Shown: positions 34,703 through 48,586 of the stretch, in pieces
Layout: every line of letters begins with the position of its first letter
How positions within the stretch are numbered: the first letter of the stretch is position 1
NCBI GenBank assembly: GCA_944358695.1
Contig: CALVRM010000032.1
Location: 13,014 to 77,013, forward strand
DNA length: 64,000 nt
Source of the DNA: an uncultured Bacilli bacterium
Lineage (GTDB): Bacteria; Bacillota_I; Bacilli_A; RF39; UBA660
Direction of reading: 5' to 3'
Translations under genes and position numbers: made by a program
The notes under the pieces: model-generated
What the model was told of the DNA's origin: nothing
Databases searched by the model: none
What the model saw: the letters and a program-made list of their open reading frames with translations, nothing else

Positions 34703-34749
34703 AAACATCACCTAATAAAACTCTTGCTAAATAAAATTACTTTACCTAA

Positions 34750-36204
34750 CAAGGTGGTTTCCTTTCCTTATAATTGTATCATACTTCTACCATTTTTTGA
34801 TAAATTTTATTTAAACATTCTTGATTTAATTCACTAGGGTGTTCGTAAGGGACACCCTTTGATAATATATTATATATGATATTTATTATTCTTCGCATGA
34901 CACAAGTTAAGGCTTGTCTTTTTGTTTTGCCATCTTCTATCTTTTTATAATAATATTCTAAAAAGATAGGATTATGGGGATTATTACTGCCTTTGCCTGT
35001 GCATATACTTCGGCAAGCTAAATAATATATGTAACCGTTTAGTTTTCTGTTGCCATATTCGTTACGTACTGTTTTGTCGTGATTACCACTTGAAAAGTTG
35101 ACTGGGGCAACTCCGCAGTATCTAGCTAGTTTAGAGGAATTAGAAAATCTTTTAATATTTCCTATTTCTGATATTATTTCCGCACTTGTTATTTTGGTTA
35201 AGCCAATAAAGGTATGTAGTTTTACATCTAATTTGTCGTATAATTTTATTATCTCTTTCTCAAAGTCTTTTAATTGTTCGTTATTCGTTTTTATATTTCT
35301 AACTATTGTTCTTATTAACATATTTCGATTATCTTCATATATAGTGTCTTATAATCATAGTTTTTGATAAGATTTAGTATTGTATTGGCTTTGGTTATTG
35401 GAAATTTCCCTTTGGTAGTTAAACTTTCTTTTAACTCTTCTGCTGATAGTTCTTTAATCATATTAGGACTAGGATATGTTTCCCAAAAATCTAAAGCTGA
35501 TATGTGGTCTATTTTAGAAAAGAATTCTTTGTAGTTGGGATAATGATGTAATAGTTGAGCATGAAGTTTGTTTTTTAGTTTTACATTAGTGTTTGCCAAA
35601 GTAGTTTTCATTTTTATAAGTTGTTTTAAAGTCCAATATATCTCATCATCTTTAGCGTCGGGTAAATGGTCTAATTCGTCCAAAGTTACTTTAGCAATAC
35701 ATTCAGCATCTAATTCATCGGTCTTATCAATAATCGGATGTTTTTTTCGTTCGTTGTAAGTGTAGTTAGAATTTACGTGTTTTACTATTTGATTATGAGA
35801 AAGTAAGAAACTACACAAAGTATGCCCTAGATGTTTTGTATCTTCTAAACCAAATACTGCTTTAACTTCTTTACTTGTATATTTTAATACCATATCTAAT
35901 AATTTATTAAAATCCTCTTTTGTATTTTTAAAAGTTAATGTGTCTAGTTTATCATTAAATGGGCTGATGACCACAGCGGTATGTGAGGCTTTATGACAAT
36001 CAATTCCAACATATATAAAACCTAACTTACGGTGGTTATAAAAGTTCATTGTATCACGTTCCTTTCTTTAATAGATAAATATAATAAGATATAATCCAAG
36101 ACACTCTTAGCATTAGCATTAGTGGCTTTTGGAAATTTTCGCGCCCCAAAAGCCACCTGCAACAGTTGGGTAGTCAGTTAATTATAACTTTTTATATTAT
36201 CTTG
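34750..36204 (-). mobile_element. IS110-family insertion sequence (boundaries approximate)
   Basis: Transposase reading frames span 34779-36049, with a ~155-bp non-coding 5' end carrying a strong hairpin. I could not identify terminal repeats, as expected for IS110, so the ends are not resolved. Confidence 0.45.
34779..36049 (-). pseudogene. IS110-family transposase split by a frameshift near 35318-35349
   Basis: N-terminal ORF 35315-36049 carries the DEDD-type start YVGIDCHKASH. C-terminal ORF 34779-35321 carries the Transposase_20 motif SEIGNIKRFSNSSKLARYCGVAPVNFSSG...GNRKLN. The two frames overlap and join with a 1-nt shift. Confidence 0.8.
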
Positions 36205-36396
36205 TTATGATAATTGCTTACATATTGTTTTGATTTCATCGGCTTCTTCTTTGGTTATCTTTATTAGAACAAGCATATTGTTTTCAAAAACCACTTCAAA
36301 CTTGTCACCAATATCAAACCCTTTTTCTTTAAGCCATTTACCAGTTATCTTAATGGCTGGTCGTTCATTTATTTCTGTTACGGTATAGATTTTCAT
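36205..36396 (-). CDS. SymE-like type I toxin (AbrB/SpoVT-fold)
   Basis: 63 aa. AIKITGKWLKEKGFDIGDKFEVVFENNMLVL matches the SymE-family core pattern (L.G.WL...GF..G..V.V....L.I). Confidence 0.65.
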   Translation of the reverse strand: MKIYTVTEINERPAIKITGKWLKEKGFDIGDKFEVVFENNMLVLIKITKEEADEIKTICKQLS

Positions 36397-36440
36397 ATAT
36401 AAAAACTCCTTTCTGAAAGTTTTGGCTACTTAAAATAGGC

Positions 36441-36480
36441 ATTATACCACTAGTATTAATATGACCTAGTCATATCTACA
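36441..36480 (-). promoter_or_regulatory. extended -10 promoter for the symE-like gene with upstream palindrome
   Basis: The minus strand reads TGgTATAAT (36441-36449). The palindrome ATATGAC-cta-GTCATAT at 36459-36475 covers the -35 region. Confidence 0.5.
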
Positions 36481-36599
36481 AGAGTTTTAAAATAGCCATT
36501 TTTTATCCAAGCTTTCGCTTGTACTCGATTTTTTTCATATTAGGTTTTAATTGTCAATACTTTTTTTCAACTATTTTATAAAAAAACAAACCTTATTCT
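36442..36599. repeat. inverted repeat IR-A, left copy (158 bp)
   Basis: Reverse complement of 38073-38231 with 2 substitutions and one T-run indel, by my manual alignment. Confidence 0.9.
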
Positions 36600-36618
36600 T
36601 CGCATGAATAAAGTTTGT
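36578..36618 (-). terminator. rho-independent terminator of the DUF285 gene
   Basis: The minus strand reads ACAAACTTTATTC-atgcgaa-GAATAAGGTTTGT followed by TTTTTTT. Half of the stem lies inside IR-A. Confidence 0.7.
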
Positions 36619-36643
36619 ATCTCTAATAATTTATTTTATTATA

Positions 36644-37726
36644 TTAACATTGACCTGTGGTTACTTCTGACACTCCACTACCTGCAAATATATTAGTAGT
36701 ATCAGCATTTTCTGTTGTCCAGTTATCTCCAACATATACTACTTCTAATTTTGGATTAGCTCCAAACATCGAATTCATATTAATAACATTACTTGTATCA
36801 AATGAACATAAATTAAGAGTAGTTAAATTTATTTTACAAAACATGAAATCCATTTTTATAACATTGCTTGTATCAAAATTACTTACATCTAAAGAACTAA
36901 GACTCTCACAATTAGAAAACATACTTCGCATATCAGTAACTTGGCTTGTATCAAAATTACTTACATCTATCTCACTTAAGCTAGTACATTCTTGAAACAT
37001 TGAAGTCATTACAGTAACATTACTTGTATTAAACTTACTTACATCAATAGATGTTAATTTATAGCATCGTCCAAACATCCCAAACATATTTGTAACATTA
37101 CTTGTATTAAAACTAGTTAAATCAATACTTTCAATTACCCGGCAATCACAAAACATATTATTCATATCAATCACATTTGAAGTATTAAAAAAATTCAAAT
37201 CTAATTTTAATAAATTTAGACATTCGCCAAACATATGATTCATGTAAATTACATTCTCAGTATCAAAATTATTATTAAAATTTATTTCCTTTGTTCCTGT
37301 AAACTGGTAAAACAAATACCCACTATTCTCATTAGCTATTACCCCGTTTTTAGCTCCAATATATAAATCATATTTTGCATTATCTTCATTATTTGGAACA
37401 ACATAAGCCATAACTCCGCCTTTACCTTCTTCTGATACATCCCAACTTTCAGTTGCATTATCTGGCACTTTATTATTATCTAAAAAAGTCACGGATACTA
37501 TATTTTCCTTGTAATAATCGGTGTGAAAATCTTCATTACTTGTGTTAGACCAACTTTGGATAACTTTGCTTTGCTCTTTTATATTTCCTTTGGCAGTTAT
37601 GCTTAGGTTTGTTTGAAAGGCGGCATAACCTGCCGTCATTACAAACAATAAGCATAACACACTCATTATTACTACTTTCTTTTGTTTACTTCTTCTTTCT
37701 TTTCTTGTTAATCTTCTTTTTCGCAC
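36644..37726 (-). CDS. BspA-like leucine-rich repeat surface protein (DUF285 repeats)
   Basis: Basic N-terminus, a TM/signal segment, then ~7 tandem repeats of the pattern F.TSNV..M..MF..C..L..ID(L/V)S.F. Confidence 0.75.
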   Translation of the reverse strand: MRKRRLTRKERRSKQKKVVIMSVLCLLFVMTAGYAAFQTNLSITAKGNIKEQSKVIQSWSNTSNEDFHTDYYKENIVSVTFLDNNKVPDNATESWDVSEEGKGGVMAYVVPNNEDNAKYDLYIGAKNGVIANENSGYLFYQFTGTKEINFNNNFDTENVIYMNHMFGECLNLLKLDLNFFNTSNVIDMNNMFCDCRVIESIDLTSFNTSNVTNMFGMFGRCYKLTSIDVSKFNTSNVTVMTSMFQECTSLSEIDVSNFDTSQVTDMRSMFSNCESLSSLDVSNFDTSNVIKMDFMFCKINLTTLNLCSFDTSNVINMNSMFGANPKLEVVYVGDNWTTENADTTNIFAGSGVSEVTTGQC

Positions 37727-37858
37727 AATATCTTACTCCTTGCTTATTAAACTCGTATATATTTGTTTTCATTATATCATATTTTACACAATTTGTACTA
37801 CAATTCGTGTAACTTACTATTTGTAGTACAAAAAAATATAATTTTAAGTAGAGGTGAT

Positions 37859-38056
37859 ATGATGAAAAATTTTGAACTACCTAATATTGAAGATGAACAA
37901 ACTGTATTAAAGACTATTAGAATTAAATTAGCAACTTTAAAAAAAGTAGAAGAAGTTTCAAAAGAAAGCAATTTATCTATTAATAGAATTATTAATGAGT
38001 GTATTGAGTTTGCACTTAACAACTTAAATGACACACCACTAAAAAAGAATAAATAA
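37859..38056 (+). CDS. ribbon-helix-helix (CopG/Arc-like) small regulator
   Basis: KTIRIKLATLKKVEEVSKESNLSINRIINECIEFALNNL fits a beta-strand/helix/helix RHH pattern. A GAGGTG SD precedes it. Divergent from the DUF285 gene. Confidence 0.5.
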   Translation: MMKNFELPNIEDEQTVLKTIRIKLATLKKVEEVSKESNLSINRIINECIEFALNNLNDTPLKKNK

Positions 38057-38072
38057 GGTTTAAGCAATAATC

Positions 38073-38231
38073 AGAATAAGGTTTGTTTTTTTATAAAATA
38101 GTTGAAAAAAAGTATTGACAATTAAAACCTAATATGAAAAAAATCGAGTACAAGCGAAAGCTTGGATAAAAAAATGGCTATTTTAATACTCTTGTAGATA
38201 TGACTAGGTCATATTAATACTAGTGATATAA
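38073..38231. repeat. inverted repeat IR-A, right copy (159 bp)
   Basis: See the left copy. Its outer end overlaps IR-B by 8 bp (TGATATAA). Confidence 0.9.
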
Positions 38232-38328
38232 TTGGGCAAATCATTTCTACCCACGATTAACACCAACATCAAAATAATCCCTCTAGGTCAGACCTAGAGG
38301 GATTTTCTCACGCCATGACTTGCCACGT
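38224..38328. repeat. inverted repeat IR-B, left copy (105 bp, perfect)
   Basis: Exact reverse complement of 38899-39003 by manual comparison. Confidence 0.9.
38239..38307 (+). ncRNA. candidate ~70-nt small RNA, copy 1 (promoter-to-terminator unit inside IR-B)
   Basis: Extended -10 TGaTATAAT at 38224-38232. Terminator AATCCCTCTAGG-tcaga-CCTAGAGGGATT followed by TTTT at 38276-38306. There is no ATG in between. Confidence 0.45.
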
Positions 38329-38898
38329 AAACTTGAAACTAATGCAAGTTTATTTTAAGATTATTAATATATAAATTCATAAAAACATTATCATTATATT
38401 TTATATTTAAAAAATGTTTTTATGAATACTAATAAAGTGTTAATAAACTTGCTCCGCACTCCGTGCGTTTGAAAAATTGAAATGTTTAAAACGTATTAAC
38501 TTTATGCGCCACTTCTTTAATAATATTAAATGATATAGGCACATAAAGAAGATAGCTAATATTTATTATTAACTAAAATAATCACTAGCAATATATAAGT
38601 AAAATAAAAATATATTAAAGTTTAATAAATTATAAAAATTATTATATTCTTACATTTTAAGCTAGTGTTATAACGTGTAATTTTTCAATTTAGTTGTAAA
38701 GTTTAATTTGTATTGAAAATTGTAAGTTATCATTATTTATTATAAATGAAGAAACAACTTACAATTTTAATTTTCCAAATATCATAATTATTATTTAAAA
38801 AGAAAAGATTTTGGAAAATTCAATACAAATGGGTGTTCACAATTTTTTCTGATTATCCTTATTTAATATTAGGAAAAATCAGAAAAAAATAAGAACAC

Positions 38899-39003
38899 AC
38901 GTGGCAAGTCATGGCGTGAGAAAATCCCTCTAGGTCTGACCTAGAGGGATTATTTTGATGTTGGTGTTAATCGTGGGTAGAAATGATTTGCCCAATTATA
39001 TCA
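38899..39003. repeat. inverted repeat IR-B, right copy (105 bp, perfect)
   Basis: Exact reverse complement of 38224-38328. Confidence 0.9.
38920..38988 (-). ncRNA. candidate ~70-nt small RNA, copy 2 (convergent with copy 1)
   Basis: Mirror image of copy 1, with the -10 at 38995-39000 on the minus strand and the same terminator hairpin. Confidence 0.4.
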
Positions 39004-39036
39004 TAAATCGTATTAAAAAAGCGAATATATTTTCGC

Positions 39037-39708
39037 TTATATGTACATATCTTCAAATATGATATATTTATTCAGATCCTTTTTTTCCAAATCTTCAATT
39101 CCTAGAACAACTGTTGCATAATAGTCTTCATTAATCTCATAAAAAGCATAAGTCACTCTATACGATAATCCTAATTCTTTATAATCGATATAAAATACTT
39201 TAAAATTTTTGCCATTGATTTTTGTCGTGTATTCAGTTAGCTTAGTGTCATCAGCATATTGTGTATCATAAATATTTTTTATTCGTTTTTTTTCGTTATT
39301 ATAATAATCGTCATAAGCATAATCGATATAATATATTAAATAGTCACCAAATATATTATCATATTCCTTATAATCATCAGTATTATCACCCGATTCAAAA
39401 TATCCACTAGGTAGCTTAAACGATAATTGTGTATCGTCTAGATTTAAATCAACATATCCAGTGTTATGAGATTCAGTCGCCTCAAGGTTATTATCAACAT
39501 AAGTCACTAGTAATGCAGAAAAAAATATAAAAATAAATCCTAAAATAACAACAAATACTCCGCCAATAACTATCCCAACAATAGCTCCAGTACTCATTCC
39601 TTGACGTTTTGGCGTAGAAATTTGATAAGTAGGGTACAACAAATGTCCGCAATTATAACAAAATTTAGAATCTTCTTGATTTTTTGTACCACAATTTTCA
39701 CAAAACAT
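39037..39708 (-). CDS. zinc-ribbon membrane protein
   Basis: N-terminal CENCG...CYNCG zinc ribbon, one TM (GAIVGIVIGGVFVVILGFIFIFF) and an extracytoplasmic Tyr/Asp-rich domain. Confidence 0.6.
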   Translation of the reverse strand: MFCENCGTKNQEDSKFCYNCGHLLYPTYQISTPKRQGMSTGAIVGIVIGGVFVVILGFIFIFFSALLVTYVDNNLEATESHNTGYVDLNLDDTQLSFKLPSGYFESGDNTDDYKEYDNIFGDYLIYYIDYAYDDYYNNEKKRIKNIYDTQYADDTKLTEYTTKINGKNFKVFYIDYKELGLSYRVTYAFYEINEDYYATVVLGIEDLEKKDLNKYIIFEDMYI

Positions 39709-39835: not shown

Positions 39836-40729
39836 GTGAAAAACGAATATGAAAAAAAAATTGAAGATTTTGAAAATTATTTGTTACTAGAAAAAAAATA
39901 TAGTAAAAATACAATAAGCTCATACGAAAATGACCTTCAAAAATTTAAAATTTTTTTCGTAGAAAAGCAAAAAACACTTAAAAATTTAAATAATAATGAT
40001 CTTAAAAATTATATTCATAATCTCAATCAAAAAATGAATGCTAAAAGTGTATCACGAAACATCAGTACGTTAAAAAGCTTTTATAAATTTTTAATGATCG
40101 AAAAATACATTAATAAAAACCCTTTAACAACTATTGCTAACCCAAAAATAAAAAAGGATTTACCCAAAGTTCTTTCGGAAGAAGAAATAATAAAACTATT
40201 AGATTTTAAAGTTAAAGATAATTATGGCTATCGCAATAAAGCAATGATCGAACTTATGTATAGTAGTGGTCTTCGAGTAAGTGAATTAATTAATGTTAAA
40301 ATAACTGATATTGATTTAGAATTAGAAGTCATTAGAATCTTTGGAAAAGGAGCAAAGGAGCGAATTATTCCCCTAGGTGCTTACGCTAGTATGGCCTTAA
40401 AAGAATACATCACATATCACCGAGGAAGTCTTTTAAAAAAGAAAAATAGTGATTATTTGTTTTTAAATAGCCGTGGCGATAAAATGACTAGACAAGCCTT
40501 TTTTAAAATATTAAAAAAAATTGCTAAAGAACAGGGAATTAAAACTGAATTTTCACCTCATACTCTAAGGCATTCATTCGCAACGCATCTTTTAAAGCAT
40601 GGCGCTGATCTAAGAAGTATTCAAGAACTATTAGGGCATAGTGACGTTTCCTCAACGCAAATATATACACATATAACTAATGAAGCCCTTAAAGAAAACT
40701 ATAAAAATTCTCATCCTCATGGAAATTGA
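39836..40729 (+). CDS. xerD: tyrosine recombinase, XerD-type
   Basis: 297 aa with an N-terminal core-binding domain (YSKNTISSYENDLQKF). Catalytic motifs are GLRVSEL and HTLRHSFATHLLKHGADLRSIQELLGHSDVSSTQIYTH. Confidence 0.75.
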   Translation: MKNEYEKKIEDFENYLLLEKKYSKNTISSYENDLQKFKIFFVEKQKTLKNLNNNDLKNYIHNLNQKMNAKSVSRNISTLKSFYKFLMIEKYINKNPLTTIANPKIKKDLPKVLSEEEIIKLLDFKVKDNYGYRNKAMIELMYSSGLRVSELINVKITDIDLELEVIRIFGKGAKERIIPLGAYASMALKEYITYHRGSLLKKKNSDYLFLNSRGDKMTRQAFFKILKKIAKEQGIKTEFSPHTLRHSFATHLLKHGADLRSIQELLGHSDVSSTQIYTHITNEALKENYKNSHPHGN

Positions 40730-43507: not shown

Positions 43508-43528
43508 AAAATTAGCCTCCTTATTATT

Positions 43529-43593
43529 AAAAAACACTCCATTCAAAGTAGAAGTGCATAATTGTATAAATTAACAAGTTAACATAATATATA
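43529..43593. repeat. 65-bp direct repeat, left copy (attL side)
   Basis: Identical to 49863-49927 (AAAAAACACTCCATTCAAAGTAGAAGTGCATAATTGTATAAATTAACAAGTTAACATAATATATA). Confidence 0.9.
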
Positions 43594-47639: not shown

Positions 47640-48586
47640 TGTTTGATGTAGGAGCTATATTTAGTGGTTTAATGCATGGAATTGCTACAATGCTTTTATC
47701 TTTCTTAAAACTACTAATACCCGTTTTTATTGCTATTATAATTCTCATACTGATAATTGCATTCTTTTATTTAAAGTACCGATTTGTTGACGGCATAAGA
47801 CCTAAACTTTTTAAATTACCCTATAAATTTAAATATAAAGGCAAAAATTATGTTATTCTAATGCCCGCGACTAGGAATACTAAAAAAGATGGTTTCTTTA
47901 AAAATATATTTTATCTCTTTCCTAAGCAACTAGCTTATGATTTAATTAATCAAGATCCTAATAGTTTCGATAAATTCGGTATTCATATGGTAGTAGGGGA
48001 GCAAGGTAGTGGTAAAACAATGACAGTCGCTTATTTGCTTCAAACTTGGAAGAAAAAATATCCCTTAATGCGTATTTATACTAATATGGCGTATAAATAT
48101 GAAGATGGCGAACTTATTACATGGAAACATCTTTTAGAACATAATAATAGTATTTATGGCATTGCCAATGTTATAGATGAAACTAAAACATGGTGGTCTA
48201 ATAAAGAATCTAAAGATGTTCCTCCTGAAATTTTAGGGGAAATTTGTCAGCAACGTAAACAAAAGAAAGCTACAATAGGTACAGTGCAAGTTTTTAGTGA
48301 ACTTGCTAAACCTTTTAGGTCTCAATGTCATTTTATTTATGTTCCTCATACCATTTTTGGGTGTCTTACGATAGTATTTAAAACTAAAGCTAAATATTAT
48401 GACTCTGAAAATGATACATTTAAAAAATATTGTGGTTTCTTTTTATTCGCACATACAAAACAATTACGTGAAAGTTATGATACTTATAAGAAAATTGAAA
48501 AATATAAAGAAGTTGATTTTGATGTAAGTAGTTACTTCGATTCTTGGGGACAGGCCCCATCGGTGGGGGCGTCCCAAGATGAGTAA
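47639..48586 (+). CDS. membrane-anchored P-loop ATPase, Zot/pI-like morphogenesis protein candidate
   Basis: N-terminal TM, Walker A GEQGSGKT and Walker B-like ANVIDE. It sits after the coat genes and overlaps the Rep start. Confidence 0.55.
   Translation: MFDVGAIFSGLMHGIATMLLSFLKLLIPVFIAIIILILIIAFFYLKYRFVDGIRPKLFKLPYKFKYKGKNYVILMPATRNTKKDGFFKNIFYLFPKQLAYDLINQDPNSFDKFGIHMVVGEQGSGKTMTVAYLLQTWKKKYPLMRIYTNMAYKYEDGELITWKHLLEHNNSIYGIANVIDETKTWWSNKESKDVPPEILGEICQQRKQKKATIGTVQVFSELAKPFRSQCHFIYVPHTIFGCLTIVFKTKAKYYDSENDTFKKYCGFFLFAHTKQLRESYDTYKKIEKYKEVDFDVSSYFDSWGQAPSVGASQDE

Follow-up and report, generated by a model that had tools for sequence, protein, structure and literature searches.

The stretch of DNA analysed here (the window, 64,000 nt of contig CALVRM010000032.1 from an uncultured Bacilli bacterium) carries at 38224-39003 two perfect inverted repeats that face each other across an extremely AT-rich interval. 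An earlier note on this DNA had read each repeat as the gene of a small RNA (sRNA) of ~70 nt, and the question raised by the locus is whether this reading accounts for the element as a whole. Our answer, held tentatively and with something short of even confidence, is that the repeats (hereafter arms) are paired sRNA-like units which would double as the recombining arms of an invertible structured core, situated on an accessory island. The finding is real, non-random and conserved, and the sRNA reading is plausible; the earlier note described the repeat and the anatomy of the units well, and overlooked a conserved structured core and its apparent flipping. The parts of the module are:

38224..38232 (+): extended −10 box TGATATAAT of the left arm
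38233..38328 (+): left arm, 96 nt, with a CA-rich unstructured leader of ~40 nt, a 13-bp hairpin (38276-38304), a T run (38303-38308) and a 20-nt tail
38329..38898: core, 570 bp, non-coding, kept in three lineages and flipped in contig L001
38329..38357 (+): left-end hairpin of the core, AAACTTG-N9-CAAGTTT followed by ATTTTA, near-invariant between lineages and resembling a second inward terminator
38706..38830: perfect three-way junction in the core with Watson-Crick pairs only, formed by helices P1 (38706-15/38821-30), P2 (38716-28/38756-68) and P3 (38769-79/38810-20), with compensatory changes in P1 and P2
38833..38898: long right-end hairpin of the core, kept in three lineages
38899..38994 (−): right arm, exact reverse complement of the left arm, with its hairpin at 38923-38951
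38995..39003 (−): extended −10 box TGATATAAT of the right arm, directly behind the terminator (39019-39038) of a Zn-ribbon gene

The repeat search and a direct comparison showed that 38224-38328 and 38899-39003 are reverse-complementary at 105 of 105 positions with 570 nt between them, exactly as first described. Neither a search of the whole window for repeats nor a pattern search allowing three mismatches found a further copy in the 64 kb, and shuffled sequence gave no arm matches. The hairpin AATCCCTCTAGGTCAGACCTAGAGGGATT begins 43 nt further on from the −10 box at the outer end of each arm and is a perfect palindrome with a perfect 13-bp GC stem and TTTTC on its inward side. The described order of extended −10 box, GC hairpin and T run with no intervening start is thus borne out: no ATG or GTG lies between box and hairpin, and the sole start codon is a TTG that overlaps the −10 box and has no Shine-Dalgarno sequence. 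Beyond the T run the repeat continues inward for 20 nt as a GC-rich tail ending in CCACGT. The outer flanks read ..ACTAG and TAAATCG.., and no target-site duplication was found at them, in agreement with the earlier observation.

The core had been regarded as an ORF-free, extremely AT-rich stretch. No credible open reading frame (ORF) is indeed present: the three that exist encode 21-34 aa, none of them is conserved or preceded by a Shine-Dalgarno sequence, and no ORF with a ribosome-binding site was found in the core of the window or of the related lineage L059. Small toxin-like ORFs were also looked for in the core, and none were found. The stretch is nevertheless not inert, since it is conserved, folds far better than shuffled sequence and shows compensatory changes in its helices. 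The minimum free energy of the minus strand is −143.5 kcal/mol (z −12.4) and that of the plus strand −130.6 kcal/mol (z −9.4), while shuffles reach about −78 kcal/mol. The consensus structure of a three-lineage alignment, predicted from those same sequences, contains 167 core-internal pairs; 91.9% of the cells are paired, compared with 41–50% when the partners are slid by 1–3 columns, and 26 pairs are changed on both sides, compared with 2–7 after sliding. None of 500 shuffles reached the observed paired fraction or compensatory count. In the middle of the core the hairpins are constant in position and variable in sequence. The structure leans weakly to the minus strand (window orientation), with G-U/A-C counts of 34/7 versus 17/11 and, for two of the three lineages, an energy lower by 13 kcal/mol. 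The core also has a conserved TATAAT-like box at ~38678-38684, and no convincing conserved pair of correctly spaced −35 and −10 boxes was found inside the core. Rfam gave no consistent match at E ≤ 10 for the core versions of the window, L059 and L090. In our model the core is non-coding, conserved and structured to an extreme degree, whether as RNA or as single-stranded DNA.

Related contigs were reached through homologues of a 64-aa protein encoded next to the module (144 proteins) and through homologues of a neighbouring transposase. Among uncultured gut Bacilli, at least three related lineages have the layout of arm, core and arm. In L059 the order is A, a DUF285 gene, the gene of the 64-aa protein, A' (A and A' being copies of a promoter repeat described below), SymE, an intact IS110 transposase, a 95-nt arm, a 589-bp core and the second arm. 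The two L059 arms are 100% complementary, and two blocks of its core align with that of the window, at 93% in the left-end hairpin and at 77% over the right 240 nt. L090 provides a third full core; of its second arm 27 nt are present, and these are identical to the first arm. Further arms were found on L092, L094, L097 and L082, and a partial arm on L087.

Between lineages the arms are 58–79% identical, whereas within each genome the identity is 100%, so the arms evolve in concert and the two arms of one genome keep exchanging sequence. Among the causes that had been listed for their identity (recent duplication, gene conversion or selection), gene conversion is therefore favoured. The arm hairpins read AATCCCTCTAGG.. 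in the window, AGCCCTATGGAG.. in L059, AGCCCTATGGGA.. in L094 and AGCCCTAGGAG.. in L092; each is a perfect palindrome with TTTT or TTTC on its inward side. The conserved parts of the arm are the 5′ end TT(A/G)GG(A/C/G)AAAT, the CA-rich and G-poor leader of ~35 nt and the inner end (C/A)CACG(C/T).

Inversion of the core, which the earlier note had proposed to look for in long reads, was seen at the level of assemblies. Contig L001, from another sample (ERZ24773329), matches the Zn-ribbon/xerD flank of the window with one mismatch in 6810 nt (99.985% identity), runs through the arm and then continues into 569 nt of core oriented opposite to the window. One inversion against one substitution per 6.8 kb suggests that flipping is quick relative to point mutation, and both core orientations probably do exist. 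Inverted repeats flank the segment in the window and in L059, and the core between them is asymmetric and conserved. In other contigs an arm adjacent to an insertion sequence (IS) is joined to the left end of the core (L059, L063) or to its right end (L082, L090, L094); the IS could have entered at either arm, and these joins therefore do not decide orientation. An inversion of the cassette of the DUF285 and 64-aa genes (L089 versus L095, L059 versus L060) was rejected as evidence, because the contigs cross a 1.9-kb repeat and are unreliable there.

No dedicated invertase was found near the module, where the only recombinases are xerD and a frameshifted IS110 transposase. The former was considered and set aside as the invertase, as it is syntenic and housekeeping in all relatives. 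With no dedicated invertase present, the recombination pathway is probably homologous; 96 identical bases would suffice for recombination of the RecA type, which would also explain the homogenisation of the arms.

The sequences adjoining the arms belong to the following features of the island:

34721..36440 (−): IS110-family unit, comprising the left end GCCTATTT.., a symE-like ORF, a bridge-RNA region, a transposase in two ORFs and the right end ..TTTATTTAGCAAGAG
36205-36396 (−): symE-like ORF, 63 aa, with a Pfam SymE_toxin match
36441..36599 (−): A module, an inverted copy of A' (157 of 160 positions identical) that ends in TGGTATAAT and is predicted to drive the symE-like ORF and the IS110 unit
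36644..38056: two divergent cargo genes enclosed by A and A'
36644-37726 (−): gene of a leucine-rich repeat lipoprotein (DUF285)
37862-38056 (+): gene of the 64-aa putative DNA-binding protein
38073..38232 (+): A' module, a promoter/operator region of 160 nt whose last bases are the extended −10 box, with the palindrome ATATGACTAGGTCATAT (38198-38214) at the −35 position

A' abuts the left arm, and its final TGATATAAT is at the same time the start of that arm. On the minus strand, A is followed by the 5′ untranslated region (5′UTR), the ribosome-binding site and the ATG of the symE-like ORF. As A and A' are near-identical copies before the symE-like gene and before the arm, one 160-nt promoter region would drive two different downstream sequences. 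In L059 the SymE/IS110 unit lies exactly between the −10 box of A' and the arm, while in the window A' continues straight into the arm; the window thus represents the empty site and L059 the filled one. The arm stands directly after the IS110 right end in four lineages. Elsewhere the same right end abuts the 5′UTR of a gene, namely rarA (in the window), an ABC transporter gene or a DUF2238 gene, and in the relative L005, which has no IS, rarA is preceded by TGTTATAAT|TTATAAAGGTGATG. The filled and empty junctions together with L005 place the insertion one base after the extended −10 box (TGNTATAAT|). The right end of the IS itself carries an outward-facing TGATACAAT. The A module may itself be part of the element: its first letters are AG, as are the last letters of the right end, which is likewise the case in ISPpu9, and A precedes the left end in every context seen.

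From this insertion point it follows that two −10 boxes make up the outer 9 nt of the repeat. We accordingly read the homologous arm as 96 nt (38233-38328 / 38899-38994), and the outer 9 nt, of which 8 are fixed by the promoter consensus, as the boxes of two differing promoter contexts. The arm ends showed no similarity to the ends of three IS110 variants, and no IS end boxes or core dinucleotide flank the module. An origin of arm or core in the IS or in its bridge RNA was also considered and rejected, there being no similarity and the shared k-mers being AT-rich noise. In the transposase, the split into two ORFs is found in the window as well as in L002 and L003, and the gene is intact in L059. 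The SymE_toxin-like ORF always stands upstream of the bridge-RNA region and transposase in three lineages (the window; L059 1920-3655; L081-L098).

Transcription of the arms is suggested by the promoter boxes and by the fold. With 26 occurrences in the window, the motif TGNTATAAT exceeds the 11.2 expected; none of 100 shuffles reached this count, and many copies lie directly upstream of ORFs in the correct orientation, so it represents the working −10 type of this organism. A consensus extended −10 box precedes each arm in two lineages; the box, identified as a consensus match only, is TGATATAAT at both window arms and TGGTATAAT at the arm' of L059. The arm folds into a leader and the 13-bp hairpin with a z score of −5.7. 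The GC hairpin and the inward TTTT/TTTC are kept in four lineages, with perfect stems of 10–13 bp whose sequence is different in each. This comparison strengthens the part of the sRNA proposal that concerned the anatomy of a short self-terminating unit. A search of the whole window against Rfam 15, which had been proposed as a check, gave no matches at the gathering threshold; the best match at E ≤ 10 was rnk_leader (33.4 bits versus a threshold of 50), which covers the terminator hairpin only and lies on the outward strand. That the earlier note recognised no described RNA family, miniature inverted-repeat transposable element (MITE) or IS end in the structure agrees with the results for Rfam and for the IS ends.

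Several pairing partners were considered for the arm RNA. A role as antitoxin for the symE-like mRNA, suggested by the resemblance of TTTGATnTTGGTG, was rejected, since the duplex energy was matched by 54 of 500 and 55 of 500 shuffles. Pairing of the arm leader with core RNA was neither significant nor conserved, and a closing stem GGCAAaUCAU/AUGAcUUGCC of the 95-nt arm was taken as chance because its position is not conserved in L059.

On the reading that we favour, each arm behind its −10 box would most likely give an RNA of ~70 nt, which on the left would start near 38238-38240 and end at 38305-38308. This RNA would consist of a CA-rich leader and be ended by the perfect GC hairpin and a U run, and part of the transcription would probably read through into the core. 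Recombination between the arms would keep them identical through gene conversion and would flip the 570-bp core. The left promoter would be A' with its palindromic operator beside the gene of a small putative DNA-binding protein, and the right one a bare −10 box behind a terminator. As the two promoters differ and the core is asymmetric, flipping would exchange which promoter reads which strand of the core.

Several observations weigh against this proposal. The evidence for inversion comes from two short-read assemblies, L001 having 3x coverage, and a perfect repeat of 105 nt exceeds typical k-mers and can mislead an assembler; two contigs of the L059 lineage with the same IS type share one orientation. 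The covariation test comprises three lineages, and prediction of the structure from those sequences inflates the paired fraction, the count of double changes being less affected. A terminator scan scores the arm hairpin as a terminator on the outward strand also, and this call together with the palindromic hairpin means that the arm could end core transcripts instead of arm transcripts. The 20 nt of repeat beyond the T run are left unexplained by a bare sRNA gene, and to this extent the earlier sRNA claim falls short. Duplex tests against the symE-like mRNA and the core did not find a target of the putative sRNA. Finally, the near-pure Watson-Crick junction helices and the weak G-U strand bias make a role of the core at the DNA level as likely as a role as RNA.

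The outward terminator call leads to the main alternative, in which a structured RNA is transcribed from a promoter inside the core and the arms serve as bidirectional terminators or insulators and as recombination substrates, with no arm sRNA. No other part of the module is as well conserved or as structured as the core, which contains the conserved TATAAT-like box; on the outward strand the arm hairpin is called as a terminator and followed by ATTTTGATG, the sub-threshold rnk_leader match lies on the same strand, and 20 nt of repeat inward of the hairpin are what is expected at the 3′ end of an outward transcript. The outward U run is, however, poor in L059, L092 and L094 (GGCTTTGAT, GGCTAGAT), where the inward side retains TTTT/TTTC, and the alternative leaves aside the consensus extended −10 box before each arm in two lineages and finds no convincing, correctly spaced −35/−10 pair in the core. 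We consider it unlikely.

The module may also be a neutral inverted duplication of a promoter-leader-terminator unit, homogenised by gene conversion, whose pairing and inversion have no function. Gene conversion alone suffices for the identity of the repeats, and no target, product or invertase was found. Yet the paired layout persists in at least three lineages despite an arm divergence of 21–42%, and the compensatory changes in the core helices are unpredicted by neutral drift, so that this explanation appears improbable. A comparably small chance is given to the boldest extension of our own proposal. According to it, the core would be a new large structured RNA whose sense and antisense expression is toggled by recombination between its own promoter/terminator arms, and the module would be an invertase-free switch for phase variation at the RNA level on a small mobile island, with the IS110/symE element targeting the promoter junction.

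A role at the DNA level would take a different form if the core were a single-strand origin, packaging signal or transfer origin of a mobilisable circle of ~2.55 kb (36450-39003) with the arms as its flanking repeats. Joining the ends of 36450-39003 would re-form a second junction of A and arm. A (36441-36599) and the right arm B' (38899-39003) are the halves of an inverted A'+B, B being the left arm, with a 9-nt overlap at the −10 box, which is the layout expected of an integrated circle opened at that box; the consensus −10 boxes, however, explain the overlap as well. The near-pure Watson-Crick pairing of the junction helices, and hairpins that are palindromic including their loops in three of four lineages, fit a DNA element. 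So do the weak match of the 64-aa protein to the BfmA/BtgA N-terminus (E 0.0012, below the cutoff), an inovirus-like prophage with a rolling-circle initiator 5 kb away and the differing chromosomal sites of the island in two lineages. Against this, the unit has no Rep, relaxase or integrase, shows no sequence similarity to the prophage and has no match in the plasmid, phage and IMG/VR collections, which makes a circle quite improbable.

It is very improbable that the module is a MITE or foldback transposon whose terminal inverted repeats are the 105-bp repeats and which the adjacent IS110 recombinase might mobilise in trans, as with MITEPpu9 (ssr9) of ISPpu9. The arm does lie directly behind the IS110 right end in four lineages, the same position as ssr9 in ISPpu9 (PMC12288879), and in L082 an arm with 100 nt of core is fused to an unrelated truncated gene. 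But target-site duplication is absent, the arm ends are unlike IS ends, the outer boundary coincides with the −10 box of a promoter, and elements of the IS110 group have no terminal inverted repeats (PMC12288879). The module also occupies a single locus per lineage in all that was searched: no dispersed arm copies were found in ~100 loci outside the homologous one, and A, arm and core have no copies in GTDB species representatives, JGI metagenomes, IMG/VR, phage records or plasmid records. These counts, with two arms only in the 64-kb window, speak against the possibility raised earlier that the 105-mer is the end of a many-copy transposon. An assembly artefact through a chimeric hairpin join is barely credible, for although perfect inverted repeats are a familiar error of some assemblers and of multiple displacement amplification, independent assemblies of other samples reproduce A..A'+B (L002) and flank+B'+core (L001), and other lineages share the layout with different sequence.

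The module lies at the right end of an accessory island of ~4.3 kb (34721 to ~39020), which in this 'Tenericutes'/RF39-like genome has rarA on one side and the Zn-ribbon/xerD genes on the other. The closest species representatives are metagenome-assembled genomes of uncultured 'Tenericutes'/Bacilli from the gut, with XerD proteins 83–84% identical. At the syntenic locus in seven related species, rarA abuts xerD in five, and a membrane-protein gene and a Zn-ribbon gene lie between them in the two closest. No copy of A, arm or core was found in 49 loci of related species. The locus of the relatives being empty, the segment from 34721 (the IS right end) to ~20 nt beyond the right arm is a lineage-specific insertion, and the island stands at different chromosomal sites in two lineages.

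Within the island, the A/A' repeat brackets the DUF285 and 64-aa genes; each copy is a promoter that points outward and contains ATATGACTAGGTCATAT. In other lineages SymE/IS110 follows each of the two copies, which results in inverted repeats of ~1.9 kb. The DUF285 lipoprotein gene contains at least six tandem leucine-rich repeats of 78 nt (26 aa) at 36764-37271 (−). The 64-aa protein has no sequence match in Pfam or the PDB; its match to the N-terminus of a BfmA/BtgA mobilisation protein is a sub-threshold one in NCBIfam, and the AlphaFold2 model shows two helices with a predicted local distance difference test score of 85. It was considered as a ribbon-helix-helix repressor and this assignment was rejected, the hints being weak and the Foldseek matches non-significant. 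Its 144 homologues are 57–84% identical and are always encoded divergently from a surface-protein gene (DUF285 or DUF6273; L065-L080, L099-L100). The family is found mostly on short contigs. The adjoining surface-protein genes vary from sample to sample or are broken into fragments, and the loci may therefore encode variable surface antigens. In lineages that do not have the arms and core (L071 6144-6513; L073 4549-4939), the 64-aa gene is followed by another unit of promoter, structured RNA and terminator (TGCTATGAT ... CGCCTAATTCATGGATGATGAGTTAGGCG TGTTT), upstream of a HIGH_NTase1 gene. In L082 (2060-2657) an arm and ~100 nt of the right end of the core are joined to the 5′ part of an unrelated truncated gene (MIINKLDSIEFRLKELHDF...), with the breakpoint inside the core.

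Two further features were noted in the wider window. Direct repeats of 68 nt at 43526-43593 and 49860-49927 are 99% identical and contain a dif-like motif (reverse complement TATATATTATGTTAACT). The 6.3-kb insert between them encodes an XRE-type regulator and a REP_ORF2-G2P rolling-circle initiator (48579-49583, E 6e-20), and the segment 43526-49927 looks like an inovirus- or plectrovirus-like prophage integrated at dif. At ~49700 the gene orientation turns from plus to minus and the cumulative G-C skew peaks. The position at ~49.7 kb looks like a replication terminus, which is consistent with xerD (39836-40729) and the dif-like repeats. The module itself was considered as a replication origin and rejected, because GC skew and the strand bias of the genes point to a terminus-like switch at ~49.7 kb and the local skew reflects the minus-strand island genes only.

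The module was compared with four kinds of known system. It resembles invertons (fimS, hin, the invertible promoters of Bacteroides) in having inverted repeats around a short non-coding segment, apparently present in both orientations, with surface-protein genes nearby. In invertons, however, the repeats measure ~10–40 bp rather than 96–105 bp, a dedicated invertase is present, and the promoter lies inside the flipping segment, whereas here the predicted promoters point inward from fixed arms and a large structured element would flip. In ISPpu9, the ssr9 module has A'/B' boxes on its two sides, which are copies of the IS ends, and its formation of circles depends on the transposase (PMC12288879). 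Like MITEPpu9/ssr9 (PMC12288879), the present module has in several lineages an sRNA-like unit immediately behind the right end of an IS110-family element, but the arm ends are unlike IS ends, the window arm is not beside an IS, and the junction looks like the target of the IS rather than a hitchhiker. Type I toxin-antitoxin systems (SymE/SymR; Fst RNAI/RNAII) share with the island a SymE_toxin ORF on the same promoter module, convergent short units and a palindromic terminator. They differ in that the arm RNAs here would be identical and not complementary, the complementarity between arm and symE-like mRNA is non-significant (equalled by 54 of 500 shuffles), and the core has no small hydrophobic ORF. 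With the large structured RNAs OLE, GOLLD, ROOL and HEARO the core has in common a size of 570–730 nt, many conserved helices with covariation, occurrence in low-GC Bacillota and an association with mobile DNA. It matches none of these Rfam models at E ≤ 10, its transcription is only predicted, and it is extremely AT-rich, with near-pure Watson-Crick helices and perfect inverted repeats on both sides. Since the module shares single features with each known system and fails a defining feature of each, it is a member of no named family and is classed here as a putative invertible non-coding switch.

If the arms are transcribed and the core flips, the module would represent an undescribed layout of a switch, with fixed inward promoters and built-in terminators on long recombining repeats that enclose a structured non-coding element able to invert, and with no dedicated recombinase. 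For bridge-RNA recombinases, the insertion of the IS110/symE element a single base beyond an extended −10 box is informative on the choice of targets in nature and on the way in which such enzymes ensure that they are expressed. The core is a further candidate member of a small group, the large and highly structured non-coding elements of bacteria, and it comes from a lineage of uncultured gut bacteria in which almost no regulatory RNAs are known.

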